From assembly GCA_902613185.1 (NCBI GenBank), contig CACMGP010000002.1:35378-99377 (forward strand): DNA of 64,000 nt, given 5' to 3'. The notes below the pieces were generated by a model. That model searched no databases. It was not told the origin of the DNA and was given only the letters and a program-made list of their open reading frames with translations. Positions 1,990 through 13,205 of this stretch are shown piece after piece. This DNA comes from an uncultured Alphaproteobacteria bacterium. GTDB taxonomy: Bacteria; Pseudomonadota; Alphaproteobacteria; HIMB59. Every line of letters begins with the position of its first letter. The first letter of the stretch is position 1. A program made the position numbers and the translations under genes.

Positions 1990-3024
1990 ATGAGAAAATT
2001 ATCTCTAGTTCTAGCTTCACTTATGGCTGTTGCTTTTACTTTTGCTACTATGCCAGCAAAAGCAGGAAGCCACGCTGTTGAAGCTTGCTTAATTACAAAA
2101 ACAGACATCAACCCTTTCTTCGTTAAAATGAAAGAAGGAGCTGAAGCGAGAGCTAATGAATTAGGTGTCAAATTATCATTCTTTGCGGGTAAAGTTGATG
2201 GTGACCATGAGACTCAAGTAAGAGCTATTGAGACTTGTATTGCTTCAGGTGCAAAAGGTATTTTAATTGCTGCATCTGACACAAAAGCTATTGTTACTCC
2301 ATTAAAAAATGCTCAAGACAATGGTTTACTAGTTATTGCTCTTGACACACCACTAGAGCCAATTACAGCTGCAGACTCTACTTTTGCAACTGATAACTTC
2401 AAGGCAGGTGAGTTAGGTGGAGCTTGGGTTGCTGCAAAGTTAGGAGCAGATGCTGCTAATGCCAAAATTGCAATGTTAGACCTTAACGAGAGTCAACCTT
2501 CTGTTGGTGTTCTTAGAGATCAAGGTTTCTTATCTGGATTTGGAATCGATGTAAAAGATGTTTCCAGATGGGGAGATGAGGATGATCCAAGAATTATCTG
2601 TAATGAAGTTACAAACGGTAACGAAGAAGGTGGAAGAACTGCAATGGAAAAATGTCTACAAAAAGATCCAGACATAAACGTTGTATACACTATTAATGAA
2701 CCAGCAGCTGTTGGTGCTTATGAGGCATTAAAAGCAGTTGGAAAAGATGATGGTAGCGTTCTTATTGCTTCAGTTGACGGAGGTTGCCCAGGTGTGGCTG
2801 ACGTTGAAAGAGGAATTATAGGTGCTACATCTCAGCAATACCCATTGTTAATGGCTTCACTTGGTGTTGAGGCGATTAAAGCTTGGGCTGAAGATGGTTC
2901 AAAGCCTGAAAATACTCCAGGTCTTGACTTCTTTAACACTGGTGTGAACTTAGTTACAGATGATGCTGCTAGCGGAGTTCCATCAATTAGTGTCAAAGAA
3001 GGCATGGATAGATGTTGGGGTTAA
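1990..3024 (+). CDS. frcB: Sugar ABC transporter substrate-binding protein, FrcB type (fructose/mannose/ribose)
   Basis: Signal peptide; [42 protein letters not shown] and QQYPLLMA motifs; strong SD. Confidence 0.9.
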
Positions 3025-3040
3025 TCCAATAATTTTATTA

Positions 3041-3066
3041 TTCAGGGCAGATTATTCTGCCCTGAA
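3041..3066 (+). terminator. Intercistronic hairpin after frcB (partial terminator or mRNA stabiliser)
   Basis: Perfect 11-bp stem TTCAGGGCAGA / TCTGCCCTGAA with a 4-nt loop TTAT. This position after a binding-protein gene is typical. Confidence 0.75.
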
Positions 3067-3083
3067 GTTATGATATTTTTTAA

Positions 3084-4178
3084 ATGAATAAAGTTTCTGA
3101 TGACATTTCTAAAGATCTAAAAGATCAACCTAAATTCACAACTGATATAGGTGAAAAAGATCAAGATCATCACTCTTTTGATTTAGGTGAACAAACTACA
3201 CTAAAAAAAATTCAACATTTTCTTCACGGTAATCCAACAATAGTTCCTGTTATTATTTTAATATTAAGCGTTATTGCATTCGGCTTCATCGCTGGAGGAA
3301 AATTTTTCTCTGCTTTTAATTTATCTCTGATTGTACAACAAGTTACAATTGTCGGTATTCTTGCAGCTGCTCAAACTTTAATAATATTAACTGCTGGAAT
3401 TGATTTAAGTGTTGCTGCAATGATGGTTTTAGCATCAGTATTTATGGGTAAGCTTTCTGTTGAAATGGGAGTTCCAACCCTCCCAGCAATAGCAGTAGGG
3501 TTTATCTCTGGTATTGCAACAGGTGCTTTCAATGGGTTACTGGTAACCCGCTTAAGATTGCCTCCGTTTATAGTTACTTTAGGAACTTGGAATATATTTT
3601 TTGCACTAGTAATATTCTTTACTGGATCTCAATCTATTAGAAGCTCCGATATTGAAGTAAATGCTCCTCTTCTGCACTTTTGGGGTGAGAGAATAAATCT
3701 TGGGGGTTTTGTATTCACTTACGGTGCGTTTCTCATGATTGGTATTTTCGTTTTTCTCTGGTTTTTACTCAATAAAACTGCTTGGGGGAGGCATGTTTAC
3801 GCAATTGGCGATGATAAGGAGGCTGCTGAGTTATCAGGTATTAGAACTGATAGGATGTTAGTTTCAATTTATGCTGTTGCTGGTCTTGTTGTTGCTATTG
3901 GAGCATGGGTTTCCATAGGTAGAGTTGGTTCAGTTTCTCCAACATCTTTTTATGAGGGTAACTTAGACTCCATCACAGCTGTTGTGATAGGTGGAACATC
4001 TCTTTTTGGTGGAAGGGGCACTATAATTGGATCTTTATTTGGAGCTTTGATTGTGGGTGTATTTAGCTCAGGTCTGTCCATAGCAGGTCTTGATGTATTG
4101 TGGCAAAGATTTGCTTTAGGTTGTCTTATTATAGTAGCTGTTGGAATAGATCAATGGATAAGAAAGGTCTCAGCATAA
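3084..4178 (+). CDS. frcC: Sugar ABC transporter permease
   Basis: Multiple TM helices; GIDLSV, LPPFIVTLG, GRHVYAIGD and AVVIGGTSLFGGRG motifs. Confidence 0.92.
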   Translation: MNKVSDDISKDLKDQPKFTTDIGEKDQDHHSFDLGEQTTLKKIQHFLHGNPTIVPVIILILSVIAFGFIAGGKFFSAFNLSLIVQQVTIVGILAAAQTLIILTAGIDLSVAAMMVLASVFMGKLSVEMGVPTLPAIAVGFISGIATGAFNGLLVTRLRLPPFIVTLGTWNIFFALVIFFTGSQSIRSSDIEVNAPLLHFWGERINLGGFVFTYGAFLMIGIFVFLWFLLNKTAWGRHVYAIGDDKEAAELSGIRTDRMLVSIYAVAGLVVAIGAWVSIGRVGSVSPTSFYEGNLDSITAVVIGGTSLFGGRGTIIGSLFGALIVGVFSSGLSIAGLDVLWQRFALGCLIIVAVGIDQWIRKVSA

Positions 4179-4942
4179 TGCAGCCAGTGCTAGTAGCAAA
4201 TAAGTTGTCAAAAAAATACGGTAAAGTTGTTGCACTCGATAGTGCCGATTTAGAGCTTTATCCAGGTGAGGTTTTGGGAGTAATTGGAGACAATGGTGCT
4301 GGAAAATCTACACTAATTAAGGTTTTATGTGGTGCTGTTATACCTGATAGTGGTGAAATATTGCTTGATGGAAATAAAGTTACTTTTACATCACCCATAG
4401 AAGCAAGAAAATTAGGTATCGAAACTGTTTATCAGAACCTTGCACTTTCACCTGCTTTATCAATCACTGATAATATGTTTTTAGGAAGAGAAATTAGACA
4501 AAAAGGCTTTATGGGTAGTTTTTTAAAATTTTTAGATAAAAAAGCAATGGCAGATGAAGCTAGAAAACGACTGTCTGATCTTGGTCTATTAACCATACAA
4601 AATATAAATCAATTAGTTGAAACATTGTCTGGAGGTCAACGGCAAGGTGTTGCGGTTGCAAGAGCAACATCATTTGGTACTAAAGTCGTTATTATGGATG
4701 AGCCTACTGCCGCTCTAGGTGTCAAAGAAAGTAGAAGAGTTTTAGAATTAATCGGTGAGGTGAGGTCTAGAGGAATTCCCATCATATTAATTTCTCATAA
4801 CATGCCTCATGTGTTTGAAGTAGCTGATAGAATACATATTCATAGACTTGGAACCCGATTATGTGTAATTGACCCAAAGAAACATGAAATGTCTGATGCT
4901 GTCGCATATATGACAGGTGCTAAGCAACCACCTCAAGATTAG
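4178..4942 (+). CDS. frcA: Sugar ABC transporter ATP-binding protein
   Basis: Walker A GDNGAGKST, LSGGQRQ signature, Walker B IMDEPT. Start moved to ATG 4178, overlapping the frcC stop (TAATG), instead of the track start at 4100. Confidence 0.92.
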   Translation: MQPVLVANKLSKKYGKVVALDSADLELYPGEVLGVIGDNGAGKSTLIKVLCGAVIPDSGEILLDGNKVTFTSPIEARKLGIETVYQNLALSPALSITDNMFLGREIRQKGFMGSFLKFLDKKAMADEARKRLSDLGLLTIQNINQLVETLSGGQRQGVAVARATSFGTKVVIMDEPTAALGVKESRRVLELIGEVRSRGIPIILISHNMPHVFEVADRIHIHRLGTRLCVIDPKKHEMSDAVAYMTGAKQPPQD

Positions 4943-5577
4943 TTTATTAAATTAAATTCAGCAGAAATACTTTTACTAATAACATTTAATCCATTTGGAA
5001 GATCATTTTTATAAACTTTATTTTTAATTTGATCATTAGATAGCCCATAACTCTCCCATCTTTCAATTAATCTTTTTTCTAAAATATCTTTATTACAATC
5101 AATCATTATAGTTGTGTCAAAAAAATTATGAATTTTTCTCCATGGTTCTTGATCAAGCAATAAATAATTACCCTCTACTATTATAATTTTTGTATTCTCA
5201 GATATGACTAATGCAGATGATCTTGATAGTTCTAATGATCTATCGAAGATAGGAACAATTACTTCACCCTCATTTTTTAATCTTAATAAACAATTTAATA
5301 AACTTAGTACATCAAATGTTTCTGGTGCCCCTTTTCTCTCAATCAATTTTTTTTTCTCAAGAATATTATTATCTAGATGGAAACCATCCATTTGAAGAAC
5401 ACTTGATTTGTGGTTTTTAGATATTAGTTCGGACTTTAATTTTTCAGATATTGTGCTTTTTCCAGATGCTGGCGCTCCTGCAATTGCAATAAAATAACGA
5501 CTTTGATTAATTTTAATAACATTTTCTAGTATTTTGTTTACTAATTCAGGGAATTCTATTCTTTGGTTACTAGACAT
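4939..5577 (-). CDS. frcK: FrcK-like P-loop kinase (pantothenate/uridine kinase fold)
   Basis: AIAGAPASGKST P-loop, MDGFHLDN, RKGAPETFD and VEGNYLLLD motifs; adjacent to frcBCA. Confidence 0.75.
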   Translation of the reverse strand: MSSNQRIEFPELVNKILENVIKINQSRYFIAIAGAPASGKSTISEKLKSELISKNHKSSVLQMDGFHLDNNILEKKKLIERKGAPETFDVLSLLNCLLRLKNEGEVIVPIFDRSLELSRSSALVISENTKIIIVEGNYLLLDQEPWRKIHNFFDTTIMIDCNKDILEKRLIERWESYGLSNDQIKNKVYKNDLPNGLNVISKSISAEFNLIN

Positions 5578-7084: not shown

Positions 7085-8077
7085 ATGAAAAAGTCTTTAG
7101 ATCAAAAAATTCTTAGAATAAAAAATAATAAATATTCTCCAAGAGACTTCATTATAGCAGATGCTAAAGATGGCGATCTAGCAATGGGTATCACAACACC
7201 TGGACCAAAAAGAAATGAAAATGGAAAAGTACTAAAAGGATATAAAAATCTAGTAGATTACAAAAATGCAATGATATCGATGACTAAATCTAATTTAGTA
7301 GATATTATGCTGATGTCTGCATCAGTTGGTGAAGATCTTGTAAAAAGAAATTTATTTAAAAATTCAAGTATTACACCTGCTATTAGAATGAATGATACGA
7401 CTGATATCTGGCTGATGAGAAATGGAAATTATAGAAAAACTAATCCTAGACCTTTTCGGTCTGCTCAAATAAACAAAGTAAGTAGATTAGTTAATCTTGG
7501 TTTATTTTCTATAACATTTTCTAATAATGTTGACTATGACCTTGCAATGTTAAATGCCTATAAAGAATATAGAATTGAGGCTTCTAAATATAAATTTAAA
7601 CATTTTTTAGAAGTATTTAATTCCCCGATTGATCTAAATATGAACATAAGACAAATGGGTGACTACATTAACGATTGCATTATAAAAGCAATAGCTGGGC
7701 AAACTAAGGATGAGAGACCTCTTTTTTTGAAAATAGCTTACAATGGTCCAAAAGCAATGGAGGAGCTAGCCAGCTTCGATCCTGAAAATCTTATTGTTGG
7801 TATTCTTGGGGGTAGCAAGGGCACGACAAGAGATTGTTTTGAATTAATTAAAAAAGCCAGTCAATATGGTGCAAAAGTAGCTTTGTTTGGGAGAAAAATT
7901 AACTTAGCTGAAGATCCTATCTTATTAGTAAAAATTATGAGAGAAGTTGTTGAAAGTAACATTAAACCTAAGGATGCTGTAAAACTTTACCATTCTGAAT
8001 TAAAGAAAAATAAACTCATACCCGACAGGAAACTTTTAAAAGACCTTGAGATCACTGAAAAAGTTTTAAAATTATAA
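7085..8077 (+). CDS. Uncharacterised TIM-barrel protein, class I (DhnA/LsrF-like) aldolase-like
   Basis: FLKIAYNGP (candidate Schiff-base Lys), GILGG and LFGRKI occur in the order seen in class Ia aldolases. Sugar-cluster context. Confidence 0.6.
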   Translation: MKKSLDQKILRIKNNKYSPRDFIIADAKDGDLAMGITTPGPKRNENGKVLKGYKNLVDYKNAMISMTKSNLVDIMLMSASVGEDLVKRNLFKNSSITPAIRMNDTTDIWLMRNGNYRKTNPRPFRSAQINKVSRLVNLGLFSITFSNNVDYDLAMLNAYKEYRIEASKYKFKHFLEVFNSPIDLNMNIRQMGDYINDCIIKAIAGQTKDERPLFLKIAYNGPKAMEELASFDPENLIVGILGGSKGTTRDCFELIKKASQYGAKVALFGRKINLAEDPILLVKIMREVVESNIKPKDAVKLYHSELKKNKLIPDRKLLKDLEITEKVLKL

Positions 8078-9049
8078 TTTAGATATATTGGGTAAATTTC
8101 CAGAAGAGGCATTAACTTTTATCATAGATGTCCCAGCTGCATGAGCTTTTTTGAGAGTTTTTTTTATGTCCCAATTTTCATGTATTCCAAATATAAATGC
8201 TGCACAAAAAGCATCTCCAGCTCCAACTGAATTTATTACCCTGCTTTTTGGTAAAACCTTTGATTTAGTGTAAATTTTTTTTGATCTATCAAAATAGAGC
8301 GACTCAGTTGGACTATGAATAACAACTCCTCTAATAATACCCTTTTTGAAAACTTTACTGATTAACTTGATTAAGATTTTTTGATTAAGTTTTTTATTGA
8401 AGTCGTAAATTTTTTTATCAAATAGTATCTCTGCTTCAATTTCATTCAAAAGCAAATAATCGGTGAATGGCAATGAGCTTTCAATAATATTTTTATATTT
8501 AGGGTGCTTATTTGAAACTAAATCTAAAACTGTTATCACATTTTTACTTTTAGCTTTTTTTAAAACTTTTGATAAACGAGTTTTTTTGTCAACATCAAAT
8601 TTGTCCAATTTACCTAATAGTGTAATATATCCGACATAAAGAACTTTAGGTGAAATTTTTAATTGGTTAATTTTAAAATGTTTTTTATCAAGTAAGCTGT
8701 TTGCCCCTGGATAATATAAAAAAGTTCTTTCTTTTTGTTTTTCAAACATACAAACGGTATGAGAAGTAGAAATTTGCTTTGATACAATTAAATATTTAGT
8801 CTCTATTTTATTTTCTCTACAATGTTTTTTTATAATTGATGCATCTGTATCAAGTCCAATTGATCCCATTGCGTACATTGGATGTTTAAATCCTAAAGAA
8901 TTTAAATCCGTCAAAACATTTGATGGACCTCCACCTACGCATTGAAAAGTATTAGAAATTGCTTCTAATTTACCTCTATCAGGTAAATTATCTATTTTGT
9001 ATGTGGTATCTACACACCACATTCCAAGGCCAATTATACCTCTTTGCAT
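8072..9049 (-). CDS. PfkB-family carbohydrate kinase
   Basis: GGGPSNV, ERTFLYYPGAN, LLLNEIEA and NSVGAGDAFCAAF motifs. Confidence 0.9.
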   Translation of the reverse strand: MQRGIIGLGMWCVDTTYKIDNLPDRGKLEAISNTFQCVGGGPSNVLTDLNSLGFKHPMYAMGSIGLDTDASIIKKHCRENKIETKYLIVSKQISTSHTVCMFEKQKERTFLYYPGANSLLDKKHFKINQLKISPKVLYVGYITLLGKLDKFDVDKKTRLSKVLKKAKSKNVITVLDLVSNKHPKYKNIIESSLPFTDYLLLNEIEAEILFDKKIYDFNKKLNQKILIKLISKVFKKGIIRGVVIHSPTESLYFDRSKKIYTKSKVLPKSRVINSVGAGDAFCAAFIFGIHENWDIKKTLKKAHAAGTSMIKVNASSGNLPNISKL

Positions 9050-9714
9050 TATATTTCATTCCAGAGAGGATGTATCGCAACTTCATCTTCTTCAACTTCA
9101 GTAAACCTTCCCACACTTTCTAAAAAATAGTTATCTTTATTATCATCGTTGACTTGAGAAACCTCTCCTGCCATAACCATTCCTGAACCCTCAGCAGAGT
9201 AAAATTTATGATATATGTTTCTTTCAACAGTGACGCTCTGACCTCTTTTTAAAATTAAGGGTTCTCTTGGTGCAACAGAAACTATTTCACCATCAACAAG
9301 AACATCAATTTTAGAGTTTAATTCAATTTGATTTGAGTCGACTTCTAAAAATTCAATTACTAATTCCCCGCCTCCCCGATTAATTATATCTTCTAGTTTT
9401 ACATTATGGCTATGAAAAGGAATTTCTTGACCTTCTCTCATAAACAATAACTTTTCTGCATAGGGTTTGTCATCATTATTACCCTGTATTCCATTCCTTA
9501 TACAAAATAAGGTGATACCTTTTTTTTCAAATTCGCCTTTACCAAAATCAGTAACATCCCAGCCCATTTGATGATTTTTTAAATAATTTTTTAGGTCAGG
9601 ATTATTGTTGTACTCTTCTTTAGACCAATAGCCCCATTTAGGTAGAACCCACGAATATCTATCGATCATATCTTTAGCTTCAGATATTGCAGCATTTATT
9701 TCAGATCTTTTCAT
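9049..9714 (-). CDS. D-lyxose/D-mannose family ketol-isomerase (cupin, DUF1498 type)
   Basis: MKRSEIN, GWDVTDFG, TLFCIRNG, YAEKLL, PFHSH..KLEDIINRGGG and EVSQVNDD..DNYF motifs. Confidence 0.88.
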   Translation of the reverse strand: MKRSEINAAISEAKDMIDRYSWVLPKWGYWSKEEYNNNPDLKNYLKNHQMGWDVTDFGKGEFEKKGITLFCIRNGIQGNNDDKPYAEKLLFMREGQEIPFHSHNVKLEDIINRGGGELVIEFLEVDSNQIELNSKIDVLVDGEIVSVAPREPLILKRGQSVTVERNIYHKFYSAEGSGMVMAGEVSQVNDDNKDNYFLESVGRFTEVEEDEVAIHPLWNEI

Positions 9715-9760: not shown

Positions 9761-10777
9761 ATGAAAACAATAATTGTTGATCCTTTTCCAAGACAAATGG
9801 ATCTTATTTTCTCTAAAGATAAGCTTGTTTATTTAAAAAAAAATTTCAAACTTATTAACGCTCCAATAAAAAATAAAAAAAATTTTTATCAAAACAATAT
9901 ATCAAAAGCAGATTTTATAATTGGACAACCTGACCTTCCAAATTCAATTTTAAAAAAGGCAGCAAAACTTAAAGCTATATTCAATGTTGAGAGCAACTTC
10001 ATGGACAATATGGATTATGAGTATTGTTTTAGAAATGGTATCTATGTTCTCTCCACTGCTCCTGTTTTTGCTCAAACAGTTGCTGAAATTGCAGTTGGTT
10101 TTACTTTATCTCTCAAGAGGGAAATTCATCAATCACATATAGATTTTATTAATAATAAAGAAAAATATGGATTGGAAAGTAATATGAATGCTAGTTTATT
10201 GCAGAATAACACTGTCAGCTTTATTGGTTTTGGAGATCTAGCCAAAAAGTTAAAACCCTTGTTAGAGCCATTCACAAATAATTTTCTTGCATACGACCCT
10301 TGGCTTCCAAGCAAGTTGCTTGAGGATAATAATTGTAAAATTAATTCTCTTAATGAAATATTTAAAAAATCAGATGTGATATATGTTCTTAGTTCTATCA
10401 CAACAAAAAACAAACATATGATTGATAAAAAGCTACTGAGTCTGATGAAACAAAATTCTTGTTTACTAATTCTAAGTAGGGCTAATGTAGTGAATTTTAA
10501 AGACCTACTAAAAATTTCAAAAAAAAGAAAAATAAAAGTTGCAACAGATGTATTTCCTGAGGAGCCAGTAAAAAAAAATGATCCCATACGTAAATCTAAG
10601 AATATTCTTTTCTCAGCACACAGAGCGGGAGCTCTAGAGTCTGTCTTTTATGAAATGGGCGAAATAGTGTTTGAAGATTTAAAACTAATAAATAAAGGTC
10701 TCCCTCCAAAGTTATGTAGAAAAGCAGAGCTAGAGACTGTCGGAAAACTAAGATCAAAACCAGTAAAGATTAATTAA
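9761..10777 (+). CDS. D-isomer-specific 2-hydroxyacid dehydrogenase family protein
   Basis: FIGFGDLA Rossmann motif, AYDPW, SRANVV (Arg), DVFPEEP (Glu) and SAHRAG (His). Confidence 0.88.
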   Translation: MKTIIVDPFPRQMDLIFSKDKLVYLKKNFKLINAPIKNKKNFYQNNISKADFIIGQPDLPNSILKKAAKLKAIFNVESNFMDNMDYEYCFRNGIYVLSTAPVFAQTVAEIAVGFTLSLKREIHQSHIDFINNKEKYGLESNMNASLLQNNTVSFIGFGDLAKKLKPLLEPFTNNFLAYDPWLPSKLLEDNNCKINSLNEIFKKSDVIYVLSSITTKNKHMIDKKLLSLMKQNSCLLILSRANVVNFKDLLKISKKRKIKVATDVFPEEPVKKNDPIRKSKNILFSAHRAGALESVFYEMGEIVFEDLKLINKGLPPKLCRKAELETVGKLRSKPVKIN

Positions 10778-10816
10778 TTAAGTTGAATTTAACGAATTAA
10801 TTTAGTTCTATATTAT

Positions 10817-11275
10817 ATGCTTATTAAAATTGATCCTATTCTTAGTCCAGAGGTTTTGCATACTTTAAGAGCGATGGGACATGGAGATAAATTAATTTTA
10901 TGTGACTCAAATTTTCCCGCCTATTCGATGAACTCCAGAGTTCATCGTATTGATGGTGTAAATGCTGCAAGAGCTGCCGAGGCTATACTCTCCGTATTTC
11001 CTCTAGATAGCTTTGTCGACTCTCCTATTCAAAGGATGGAAATTGATGGAAATCCAGATCAATTAAATGAAGTTCATCAAGAAATAATTGACATAACTAA
11101 GAAAATCTCAGGAGAGCATTGGAAAATTTCATCTATTGAAAGGTTTAAATTTTATGATGAAGCCAAAAAGGCATTTGCCATAATAACAACAAACGAAACA
11201 AGACCATTTGGATGCTTTATCTTAACTAAAGGAGTTGTTAAACCTGATGGTACTGTTTGGGTACTAGATCATTGA
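10817..11275 (+). CDS. RbsD/FucU-family sugar mutarotase
   Basis: LRAMGHGD, DSNFPA, ERFKFYDEAK and TNETRPFGCFILTKG motifs. Confidence 0.9.
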   Translation: MLIKIDPILSPEVLHTLRAMGHGDKLILCDSNFPAYSMNSRVHRIDGVNAARAAEAILSVFPLDSFVDSPIQRMEIDGNPDQLNEVHQEIIDITKKISGEHWKISSIERFKFYDEAKKAFAIITTNETRPFGCFILTKGVVKPDGTVWVLDH

Positions 11276-12177
11276 GTATTTGTGTATTTGGGATATTCGT
11301 TGCAGATCTGTGTTTCTTTGCAAATGATATTCCAATACCAGGTCAAACCATATTAGGAAAAAAATACATCATCGGACCAGGTGGTAAAGGGTCTAACCAA
11401 GCAATAGCAGCAGCTAGAGCAGGAGGTAATGTATCATTTATAAGTAAAGTAGGTAAAGATAGCTATGCCGATCTTGCAATCTCTTTATACAAGAGAGATA
11501 AAATAAATTATGATGGTTTGGCTATCTCTGAAAATGAATCAACTGGGGCTGCAGGTATATTGATTAATGAAAAAACTGGGCAAAATGCAATAAATGTTGT
11601 TCCAGGAGCTGCTGGTACAATTGATGAAAATTTAATCGACTCAAAGTTAAATATAATTGAGTCTTCTAATGTTTTTTTAACTCAGTTAGAGACACCAAAA
11701 GAGGTAACACTCTATGCTCTAAAAAAAGCGAAAAATTTTAATTGTACAACAATTCTAAATCCAGCACCCGCCAGTGAAATAACTAATGATAACTTTCAAT
11801 ATTTTGATTTTTTTACCCCCAATGAAACAGAAGCAAGTTTTTATTACGGTCAATCAATTAAAAATGAGGAAGACTGTAAAAAAGCAGGAAGTTTTTTTTT
11901 AGACAAAGGGATAAAGAATATAATTATTACACTTGGAGAAAATGGTTGTTATTTTAAAAACAATAAAGAGGAGTTTATAGTACCTGCTTCAAATCTAAAA
12001 AAACCAGTAGTTGACACAACAGGTGCGGGAGATGCTTTTAATGGGGCTCTAAGTGTGGCAATCTCACAAAATAAAAACTATAAAGAAGCTATTGAGTTTG
12101 CTAATCTTGTGGCAGGTGTTTCTGTTACAAGGGAGGGAGCAGCAAATTCGATGCCATACAAAGAGGAATTACTTTAA
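11272..12177 (+). CDS. rbsK: Ribokinase
   Basis: PGGKGSNQA, LTQLE, ILNPAP, TPNETE, ITLG..G and DTTGAGDAFNG motifs. Probable TTG start overlapping the upstream TGA. Confidence 0.85.
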   Translation: MSICVFGIFVADLCFFANDIPIPGQTILGKKYIIGPGGKGSNQAIAAARAGGNVSFISKVGKDSYADLAISLYKRDKINYDGLAISENESTGAAGILINEKTGQNAINVVPGAAGTIDENLIDSKLNIIESSNVFLTQLETPKEVTLYALKKAKNFNCTTILNPAPASEITNDNFQYFDFFTPNETEASFYYGQSIKNEEDCKKAGSFFLDKGIKNIIITLGENGCYFKNNKEEFIVPASNLKKPVVDTTGAGDAFNGALSVAISQNKNYKEAIEFANLVAGVSVTREGAANSMPYKEELL

Positions 12178-12179
12178 AA

Positions 12180-13205
12180 ATGCCATATATTTCAGACAAA
12201 AATCGCTATCAAAAAATGCATTATAGAAACTGTGGTGATAGTGGTTTAAAACTACCTGTCTTGTCAATAGGGTTATGGCATAACTTTGGTGGCAATGGAA
12301 TGGCTTCTGAGTCTAAAAAAATTCTTTTTGAGTCTTTTGATGCAGGAATTACTCATTTTGATTTAGCAAATAATTATGGACCACCTTATGGCAGTGCTGA
12401 GTCTAATTTTGGAAAAGTCATGAAAAGTGATCTTGGAAAATACCGTGATGAGTTAATTATATCGTCTAAAGCAGGTTACGATATGTGGGATGGACCCTAT
12501 GGTGAATGGGGTTCAAAAAAACATGTAATTGCTAGTTGCGATCAAAGTTTAAAGAGGATGAAACTGGATTATGTAGATATATTTTATTCTCATCGTTTTG
12601 ATCCAAATACACCTCTTGAGGAAACAGCTGATGCTTTAGAAAGTATCTATAAAGCTGGTAAGGCCCTGTATATTGGAGTCTCTTCTTACTCCTCCAATAA
12701 GACAAATAAAATGATTTCAATTTTAAAGAGCAAAGGAATCAAATTATTAATTCATCAACCTTCTTATTCATTAATTAATAGATGGATTGAAAAAGATTTA
12801 ACAAAAACTCTCATAAAAAAAGGGGTTGGTTGTATCGCCTTTTCTCCACTAGCCCAAGGTTTTTTATCTAATAAATATTTAAAAGGAATTCCCAAAGTTT
12901 CAAGGGTTAATGAGAATAGCTCTTTCAGCAAAGATTTAATAACGAAAAAAAATACTAAAATTATTAATGAACTCAATAAAATTGCAAAAAGAAGAAATCA
13001 ATCTCTATCCCAAATGGCTATAGCATGGGTATTAAATAATCGTGCAATAACCTCTGCTTTAATTGGGGCTAGAACAGTAAAACAGCTTAAAGAAAACTTA
13101 GCTACACTTGATAATTTAAAATTTTCAAAAATAGAAATAAAAGAAATAAATAAAGCTGCAAAAGAGGGTGATATAAATATATGGGCTCCTTCTAGTGCCC
13201 ATTGA
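12180..13205 (+). CDS. gpr: Aldo/keto reductase, L-glyceraldehyde 3-phosphate reductase (YghZ/Gpr/MgrA) type
   Basis: YRNCGDSGLKLP..SIGLWHNFG, HFDLANNYGPPYGSAE, SSKAGYDMWDGPYG and HQPSYS motifs. Confidence 0.85.
   Translation: MPYISDKNRYQKMHYRNCGDSGLKLPVLSIGLWHNFGGNGMASESKKILFESFDAGITHFDLANNYGPPYGSAESNFGKVMKSDLGKYRDELIISSKAGYDMWDGPYGEWGSKKHVIASCDQSLKRMKLDYVDIFYSHRFDPNTPLEETADALESIYKAGKALYIGVSSYSSNKTNKMISILKSKGIKLLIHQPSYSLINRWIEKDLTKTLIKKGVGCIAFSPLAQGFLSNKYLKGIPKVSRVNENSSFSKDLITKKNTKIINELNKIAKRRNQSLSQMAIAWVLNNRAITSALIGARTVKQLKENLATLDNLKFSKIEIKEINKAAKEGDINIWAPSSAH

Follow-up and report, generated by a model that had tools for sequence, protein, structure and literature searches.

The subject of this analysis is a set of three adjoining genes in a stretch of 64,000 nucleotides (nt) from an uncultured alphaproteobacterium of the HIMB59 lineage (GenBank assembly GCA_902613185.1, contig CACMGP010000002.1, positions 35,378 to 99,377 of the forward strand). 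This stretch is called the window below, and coordinates are given in its own numbering unless another locus is named. One of the three genes encodes a protein from an uncurated family, here called ALD, and the other two encode a PfkB-family sugar kinase and a sugar isomerase, LyxI:

7085..8077, plus strand: ALD, 330 amino acids (aa); uncurated family, aldolase fold of class I (DhnA/LsrF-like); Lys216 as the candidate Schiff-base residue
8072..9049, minus strand: PfkB-family sugar kinase (P0002), 325 aa; PF00294, E 3e-34
9049..9714, minus strand: cupin-type D-lyxose/D-mannose isomerase LyxI (P0003), 221 aa; PF07385, E 3e-77, 259 bits

A first-pass annotation of this DNA had noted the isomerase and the kinase, together with a hypothetical protein that carries three motifs reminiscent of class I aldolases, and had proposed that the three constitute a pathway for ketose cleavage. 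The three open reading frames (ORFs) and their 6-nt convergent overlap are present as it described, and so are the three motifs, in the same order along ALD (FLKIAYNGP at residues 214-222, GILGG at 239-243 and LFGRK at 267-271). Its naming of the two neighbours is likewise borne out by the Pfam matches listed above. The genes are very tightly packed. The stop codon of ALD (TAA, 8075-8077) and that of the kinase (the reverse complement of 8072-8074) meet in the palindrome TTATAA, which is the point of convergence of the two genes. On the other side of the kinase, a single base is common to the LyxI stop codon and the PfkB start codon (TAATG at 9049), and thus LyxI and PfkB are, to judge from the junction itself, translationally coupled. 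Only 60 nt separate the start of ALD from the start of the divergent xylB gene, and scans of the locus for promoters and terminators gave a yield no higher than that from shuffled sequence.

ALD is a genuine gene and not a chance ORF, because its homologues form more than 7,700 clusters at 90% identity (many of them from TARA and other marine metagenomes), because it is intact in 32 of the 34 genomes of the window's genus, and because its fold is predicted with confidence. The family comprises 869 representatives at 50% identity and is without a Pfam or NCBIfam model. Its members are labelled "hypothetical protein" in RefSeq, "DhnA family fructose-bisphosphate aldolase class Ia" (a name derived from COG) at JGI and, for some of them, "Aldolase" by the automatic naming of UniProt. 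The order to which the window belongs is small, with two families among the 51 genomes searched (completeness ≥85%; 1.1-1.6 Mb, ~30% GC), and ALD is present in only 2 of the 27 genomes of the sister family. The nearest public ALD loci are found in single-cell genomes from the tropical ocean. The AEGEAN-169/HIMB59 group has been described as having a fructose ATP-binding cassette (ABC) transporter and pfk (PMC10308909).

What kind of protein is ALD? Sequence comparison places it at the margin of the known aldolases. Neither ALD nor any of 23 diverse relatives (24 members in all) matches a Pfam model at E <= 1, and a search with the single sequence found no solved structure better than E 0.01. 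Among NCBIfam models, the C-terminal part of ALD gives weak matches to LsrF (NF006081, 29.8 bits against a cut-off of 297) and to ADH synthase (27 bits), and the model of archaeal class I fructose-bisphosphate aldolase (FBA), NF040816, gives 19 bits against a cut-off of 430. In a profile of the ALD family, the beta5-beta8 region aligns with E. coli LsrF at E 2e-6, with GILGG lying over the IAGG phosphate loop of LsrF and FGRK over MGRN. Profile alignments (hhalign) of ALD with E. coli FbaB, and with a small alignment of FbaB, LsrF and the organism's own FBA, recovered only beta7-beta8.

The predicted structure is far more informative. An AlphaFold2 model, built from the alignment of 24 sequences, is a TIM barrel of eight beta/alpha units (predicted local distance difference test, 92.9; predicted template modelling score, 0.91), in which Lys216 lies within a predicted strand, residues 215-217, that constitutes beta6. 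When the model was compared with the PDB by Foldseek, the top matches were exclusively proteins of the class I aldolase superfamily: LsrF (E 5e-12), Thermoproteus tenax FBPA, the ADH synthase MJ0400, LacD, a Slackia FBA and YihT. For LsrF, FBPA, MJ0400, LacD and YihT the probability is 1.0 and the E values range from 5e-12 to 1e-8, with a template modelling (TM) score of 0.63 on the query; the best TM score on the target, 0.80, is that for T. tenax FBPA. These structural neighbours share 10-15% sequence identity with ALD. The TIM-barrel aldolase fold expected by the first-pass annotation thus finds support in the model.

Conservation over 227 full-length homologues tells a similar story. The lysine of FLKIAY, the proposed Schiff-base residue, is retained in 222 of them, its codon in the window being 7730-7732. 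Equally well kept are Glu176 on beta5 (220/227), Arg101 on beta3 (226/227), Asp73 (226/227), and Gly242, Gly243 and Arg270 (each at least 224/227, Arg270 in 224), while Asp26 and Lys28 on beta1 are found in 210 of the 227 each. Class I aldolases of the muscle and LacD type have a catalytic layout with an aspartate on beta1, a basic residue on beta3, a glutamate on beta5, the lysine on beta6 and a phosphate site formed by beta7 and beta8. By analogy, the conserved residues of ALD parallel this arrangement, with the acidic residue on beta5 in common with both LacD and muscle aldolase.

Based on the model, ALD can be placed within the DhnA/class Ia aldolase superfamily, which includes T. tenax FBPA, E. 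coli FbaB, LsrF, MJ0400, LacD and YihT, yet as a separate family outside PF01791 as that family is now defined, because no curated family threshold is reached. What ALD has in common with the superfamily is a superposable TIM barrel, a beta6 lysine in a hydrophobic-hydrophobic-K-x-x-Y context, and a GG on beta7 and a G-R on beta8 as putative phosphate loops. It differs in its low identity to these proteins (12-15%), in having an extra N-terminal helix, a hairpin at residues 41-53 and C-terminal helices, and in its beta1 motif, which is DAKD instead of D-x-G-x-E-H. Even the FbaB-type enzyme of the same genome lines up with ALD over beta7-beta8 alone.

A divergent subfamily of ALD relatives from outside the window (P0250, P0259, P0273 and P0135; ~30% identity) deserves separate mention. 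These proteins have a long C-terminal extension that ends in a conserved tail, EPDFDxMTxxEKLxYNxxRRDRIFG. The beta6 lysine has been lost from this subfamily, FLK being replaced by FTL, VLF or LLQ, except in P0135, which retains it. The lysine-less proteins may represent a non-catalytic or re-purposed branch.

The genomic setting of ALD was examined in 80 loci from Alpha- and Gammaproteobacteria, Verrucomicrobia, Actinobacteria, Chloroflexota and Myxococcota. A sugar kinase adjoins ALD in 67 of the 80, and it belongs to the PfkB family in 56 cases, to the haloarchaeal-type ketohexokinases in six and to the FGGY family in five. Outside the window's lineage, PfkB lies on the same strand directly downstream of ALD in 44 of 68 loci (L015-L082), with gaps that are mostly 0-35 nt. 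Two database proteins (P0131 and P0140) are fusions of ALD with PfkB, their kinases being of different lineages. The kinase-ALD pair recurs in Alpha- and Gammaproteobacteria, Actinobacteria and Myxococcota, and the arrangement seen in the window is retained in 12 related genomes in which ALD is 65-99% identical. The kinase in the six loci with a ketohexokinase, which are Verrucomicrobial, is a "prokaryotic ketohexokinase" (PF25270, E 2e-49), and characterised haloarchaeal members of that family produce fructose-1-phosphate (PMC11519228). The FGGY kinases that hold the same slot in five further loci are divergent members of their family.

How does the kinase of the window relate to these partners? 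Across phyla, the PfkB proteins that accompany ALD have 39-69% identity among themselves, except for two from Opitutales at ~30%. The window PfkB scores 141 bits against an Opitutales partner and 103 bits against the Aureimonas partner, compared with 53 bits against the genome's own RbsK; judged by these sequence scores, it is a divergent member of the group of ALD-partner kinases. It has the motifs GG (39-40), NEIEAE (202-207) and GAGDAF (276-281), and matches no NCBIfam equivalog. Its best solved relative is YdjH (3h49, E 1e-11), although the similarity is weak. YdjH is a ketose C1-kinase that is paired with a class II ketose-1-phosphate aldolase, YdjI, and its substrate is an octuluronate. 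The E. coli YdjH/YdjI pair thus has the same order of a kinase and then an aldolase acting on a 2-ketose, but with an aldolase of class II.

LyxI carries the metal-ligand pattern H-x-H-x4-E...H (H101, H103, E108 and H169), and its best match in the PDB is the E. coli O157 protein Z5688 (3kmh, E 5e-42). Against the NCBIfam model NF051472 it scores 209 bits, below the cut-off of 350, so that it belongs to the family without reaching the equivalog level. In Verrucomicrobia (Opitutales), LyxI, ALD and a kinase form a single operon, in the orders ALD-LyxI-Khk, LyxI-Khk-ALD and ALD-LyxI-PfkB. The linkage to sugar kinases and isomerases that the first-pass annotation had expected of ALD homologues is therefore seen, in the form of the adjacent kinases, the fusions and these Verrucomicrobial operons.

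The most telling comparison is with an operon of E. coli O157 that the same annotation had cited and that proves to be real. In strain Sakai (L093, 5159700-5166466), ECs_5073-5071 encode the ATPase, permease and binding protein of a sugar ABC importer, ECs_5070 the isomerase, ECs_5069 a class II aldolase of the FBA family and ECs_5068 a pfkB sugar kinase. Among the proteins compared, ECs_5068 is the best match of the window PfkB (33% identity, E 4e-56, 177 bits), and ECs_5070 is 38% identical to the window LyxI; these two are the counterparts of the window genes. The binding protein is only 30% identical to that of the window, and ECs_5069, a metal-dependent class II aldolase (PF01116 type, 286 aa) that is unrelated in sequence to ALD, has no counterpart in the window. 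To our knowledge, only the isomerase of this operon has been characterised; our full-text literature searches found no characterisation of its kinase or aldolase. The lyxose isomerase ECs_5070 itself is still annotated in RefSeq as a "hypothetical protein".

The window is therefore a variant of the LyxI-PfkB-aldolase module in which the aldolase component is non-homologous. From the sequence relationships, ALD appears to take the place of the class II aldolase by non-orthologous displacement, and the replacement of a class II by a class I-type enzyme, as first proposed, is the simplest reading. No other single observation argues as strongly for ALD being the module's aldolase: in one lineage the isomerase-kinase pair has a class II enzyme as its companion, and in others the companion of this pair is ALD.

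The three genes sit in a 16-kb island that holds other genes of sugar metabolism, of which those nearest to them are:

1990..4942, plus strand: CUT2-type sugar ABC importer, "FrcBCA-like" (binding protein, permease and single-domain ATPase), from Pfam matches
4939-5577, minus strand: FrcK-like P-loop kinase (PRK09270 family); NF006746, 245 bits
5570-7024, minus strand: xylulokinase XylB; TIGR01312, 499 bits (cut-off 380)
9761..13205, plus strand: D-2-hydroxyacid dehydrogenase, RbsD/FucU mutarotase, ribokinase RbsK and YghZ-type aldo-keto reductase (context genes)

The island also contains a C-terminal fragment of a transketolase, a GlpK-like FGGY kinase, a Gfo/Idh/MocA oxidoreductase, a ROK fructokinase-like gene and PfkA. 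The sugar probably enters through the CUT2-type importer. In several other Alphaproteobacteria, a binding protein with 58-72% identity to that of the window is encoded within 1-2.5 kb of ALD; the order in Aureimonas is frcB-frcC-ALD-PfkB, and Pseudoponticoccus has a minimal locus in which frcBCA is divergent from a ROK regulator, ALD and PfkB. The best PDB relatives of the window's binding protein are too distant for its specificity to be read from them. A FrcK-like P-loop kinase is also found near ALD in Ilumatobacteraceae and at two Rhodobacteraceae loci.

At L052 and L054, both from marine Alphaproteobacteria, XylB comes after ALD-PfkB too, and it may thus belong to the same multi-sugar logic of the island. 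No xylose isomerase is in view beside the xylB gene of the window, and XylB probably serves a branch from lyxose to xylulose-5-phosphate via LyxI. On the other side, the genes at 9761..13205 could possibly handle the aldehyde product of an aldolase. An aldo-keto reductase lies near ALD in six non-related loci, and the pair formed by the D-2-hydroxyacid dehydrogenase and RbsD/FucU (9761-11275, plus strand) adjoins ALD-PfkB in Aureimonas as well (L085, 12935-14416; 41-45% identity), there without the ribokinase. The pair may have a role in the same pathway, where it would act as a pyranase or oxidise the product. A 152-aa ORF on the minus strand (10129-10587), antisense within the 2-hydroxyacid dehydrogenase gene, also occurs in close relatives; it is most likely a shadow ORF, whose recurrence there reflects nothing more than conservation of the sense gene. 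In one marine single-cell genome, dhaK-dhaL is divergent from an operon of binding protein, permease, ATPase, ALD and an FGGY kinase, a juxtaposition that would be expected if an unphosphorylated triose were released.

Taken as a whole, the locus is best explained if ALD represents an unnamed class I (Schiff-base, DhnA/LsrF-type) aldolase family that cleaves a ketose phosphate, and we regard this explanation as probable. The ketose-cleavage interpretation of the first-pass annotation has thus gained ground from the predicted fold, the lysine and the gene linkage, each of which came out in its favour. That ALD is an aldolase acting on the product of the neighbouring kinase also seems rather likely. 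Considering that there is one kinase per operon, and that it comes from families acting on free sugars, the substrate should be a monophosphate. The replacement of PfkB by a Khk-family kinase, the relationship to YdjH and the DHAP (dihydroxyacetone phosphate)-forming class II counterpart all argue that the phosphate is at C1 and that the products are DHAP and a free aldehyde; the chances that ALD is a DHAP-forming ketose-1-phosphate aldolase are about even. Fructose-1-phosphate is the leading candidate for the substrate because of the FrcB-like importer and because mannose-to-fructose activity is typical of the isomerase family, but as a specific assignment it is tentative. Other 2-ketoses such as tagatose, sorbose, psicose, 6-deoxy-ketoses or, as the phosphate, xylulose-1-phosphate are possible but less favoured candidates.

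We infer the catalysis, the position of phosphorylation and the substrate as follows. The ABC system would import an aldose or a ketose, and the cupin isomerase would, where needed, convert the aldose to a 2-ketose (D-mannose to D-fructose, or D-lyxose to D-xylulose). The PfkB kinase would then phosphorylate the free ketose, most likely at C1. In the active site of ALD, the carbonyl at C2 would form an imine with Lys216, acid and base would be provided by Glu176 (beta5) and the pair Asp26/Lys28 (beta1), and the GG loop of beta7 and the G-R loop of beta8 would hold the phosphate. Cleavage of the C3-C4 bond would yield DHAP and an unphosphorylated aldehyde, which in the case of fructose-1-phosphate would be D-glyceraldehyde. 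The glyceraldehyde could be handled by the aldo-keto reductase, the GlpK-like kinase or the 2-hydroxyacid dehydrogenase or, in other organisms, by DhaKL.

Several observations weigh against this proposal. ALD scores 19-30 bits against NCBIfam aldolase models whose cut-offs are 241-430, so that the similarity at the sequence level is marginal. In hidden Markov model alignments Lys216 falls one residue ahead of Lys203 of LsrF; the ungapped pairing of FLKIAY with the IIKTYY of LsrF matches both the K and the Y. The fold itself does not guarantee the reaction, as LsrF has the same fold and a non-aldolase chemistry. About 13 of the 80 loci have no adjacent kinase, several of these being cut contigs or having unrelated neighbours. 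Within the window, PfkB is convergent with ALD and not co-transcribed with it, and it shares only 21-30% identity with the ALD partners found in other phyla. The ROK fructokinase and PfkA of the island would provide a parallel route into glycolysis through fructose-6-phosphate without ALD, and to that extent ALD would be less needed here. Finally, full-text literature searches found no characterisation of the ALD family.

Which other activities could account for the locus? One is cleavage of a sugar phosphorylated at the distal end, either as in fructose-6-phosphate aldolase, giving dihydroxyacetone and glyceraldehyde-3-phosphate, or as in deoxyribose-phosphate aldolase (DERA), acting on a 2-deoxy sugar phosphate and releasing acetaldehyde. 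Bacterial PfkB fructokinases normally yield fructose-6-phosphate, DERA binds the distal phosphate at the same beta7/beta8 site, and the dhaKL genes beside one ALD operon would fit release of dihydroxyacetone equally well. A genome search with PF01791 gave only the FBA, with no DeoC-type DERA detected. Against a distal phosphate, the kinases that occupy the same slot in Verrucomicrobia are of the Khk family, whose characterised members phosphorylate C1 (PMC11519228). Moreover, the E. coli O157 enzyme that is displaced belongs to the DHAP-forming class II aldolases for ketose (bis)phosphates, and LyxI supplies 2-ketoses, not deoxy sugars. We consider this alternative unlikely, although the least so of the rivals.

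A second possibility is that ALD cleaves a bisphosphate (fructose-1,6- or tagatose-1,6-bisphosphate) made by PfkA or by a 1-phosphofructokinase activity of PfkB, in the manner of the haloarchaeal khk-fruK-fbaB genes. PfkA is indeed located 7 kb away in the same island, aldolases for both bisphosphates are among the structural neighbours of ALD, and the automatic names given by JGI and UniProt to some members are of the "fructose-bisphosphate aldolase" kind. In haloarchaea, fructose-1-phosphate is routed through 1-phosphofructokinase and a class I FBA (PMC11519228). Against these points, the genome already has a canonical FbaB-type class I FBA of 305 aa (NF006704, 470 bits, cut-off 277), in the row gap-fba-efp-inositol monophosphatase-like gene (G000:C1:404615-405532; L002 1381-2298). 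In addition, most ALD operons have a single kinase for free sugars (such as Khk or FGGY), which means that no bisphosphate would be made within the module, and PfkA is absent from all loci outside the window's lineage. A bisphosphate substrate is therefore improbable.

The same evidence bears on the alternative offered by the first-pass annotation, that ALD is the fructose-1,6-bisphosphate aldolase serving the nearby PfkA. The search for fbaA/fbaB elsewhere in the genome that it had proposed turned up the canonical enzyme beside gap, and the partner kinases of ALD relatives act on unphosphorylated sugars, so that this version is disfavoured; a housekeeping or second FBA is rejected as the main reading of ALD on the basis of that canonical gene and of the score of 19 against 430 with the archaeal model. 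The genome also encodes a class II aldolase of 276 aa about 26 kb upstream of the window (G000:C2:7544-11350; L001). It fails to reach any FBA cut-off, has an IolB-like 5-deoxy-glucuronate isomerase on one side and a galactose mutarotase on the other, and is probably IolJ of an inositol pathway. A sulfoquinovose pathway (sulfo-Embden-Meyerhof-Parnas, sulfo-EMP, or sulfo-EMP2) was considered and rejected as well: sulfo-EMP2 uses a FucI-like isomerase, a PfkA-family kinase and a class II aldolase, and no sulfoquinovosidase is encoded nearby.

Perhaps the ALD fold is used for some other chemistry on a phosphorylated sugar, such as an LsrF-like, coenzyme A (CoA)-dependent acyl transfer, a transaldol reaction like that of ADH synthase, or an isomerisation. 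The thiolase LsrF and the ADH synthase MJ0400 are the best matches in sequence and in structure, and neither is a plain catabolic aldolase, and the family is too divergent for function to be transferred by homology. However, nothing resembling LsrG or linked to CoA accompanies ALD in the conserved neighbourhood, an aldolase holds the corresponding place in the E. coli O157 operon, and the two-gene modules of kinase and ALD must end in central metabolites. We give this possibility as little weight as a bisphosphate substrate. An outright LsrF thiolase was rejected on the scores for NF006081 and the missing LsrG-like gene, and because the adjacent FGGY kinase is XylB by its equivalog score. Finally, it is very improbable that the neighbourhood is a coincidence, with LyxI-PfkB feeding fructose or xylulose to ROK, XylB and PfkA and ALD unrelated to them, since the opposite strand and separate 60-nt upstream region of ALD, and the tight packing of unrelated genes in streamlined genomes, are outweighed by the co-occurrence of the same three families in Verrucomicrobia, the kinase-ALD pairs across several phyla and the arrangement kept in the 12 related genomes.

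Returning to the reading of ALD as a ketose-phosphate aldolase, the closest parallel outside the bacteria is animal fructolysis, in which ketohexokinase, aldolase B and triokinase act in turn. Both systems would combine a ribokinase-superfamily kinase with a class I aldolase, and the DhaK/DhaL genes beside one ALD operon add a further likeness, but animal aldolase B has no sequence homology to ALD. The haloarchaeal ketohexokinase pathway employs the same PF25270 kinase that is found at the Verrucomicrobial ALD loci (PMC11519228). Haloarchaea differ in converting fructose-1-phosphate to fructose-1,6-bisphosphate by 1-phosphofructokinase before cleavage, whereas direct cleavage of fructose-1-phosphate by ALD is proposed here by analogy. 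A possible extension, which we put forward tentatively and at less than even odds, is that ALD and its kinase constitute a widespread bacterial fructolysis module that takes fructose, or mannose via LyxI, through fructose-1-phosphate to DHAP and glyceraldehyde. A more radical variant would have ALD carry out an LsrF-like, CoA-dependent cleavage of the ketose phosphate.

What does the family mean for the organisms that carry it? ALD defines a new and large family inside a known enzyme superfamily, which fills a known type of pathway slot and does not introduce a new principle. The family has been missed by standard annotation, and yet it is near-core in an abundant, streamlined genus of marine alphaproteobacteria. 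Culturable carriers are available in Aureimonas, Pseudoponticoccus, Silicimonas, Marivivens and Cerasicoccus, and the protein could be a new scaffold of a DHAP-dependent aldolase for biocatalysis. If the proposed function is correct, the window would carry a class I version of the E. coli O157 operon for LyxI, PfkB and a class II aldolase, a clean displacement between the two aldolase classes within a conserved operon, and the pathway would be a bacterial analogue of animal fructolysis built with a different aldolase. If ALD is a ketose-1-phosphate aldolase, then current predictions of sugar use for the window's genus, many Rhodobacteraceae, Rhizobiales and Verrucomicrobia lack a pathway. For marine oligotrophs such as the AEGEAN-169/HIMB59-like lineage, Rhodobacteraceae, Granulosicoccus and Opitutales, that pathway would provide an entry of hexoses into lower glycolysis that is independent of phosphofructokinase.

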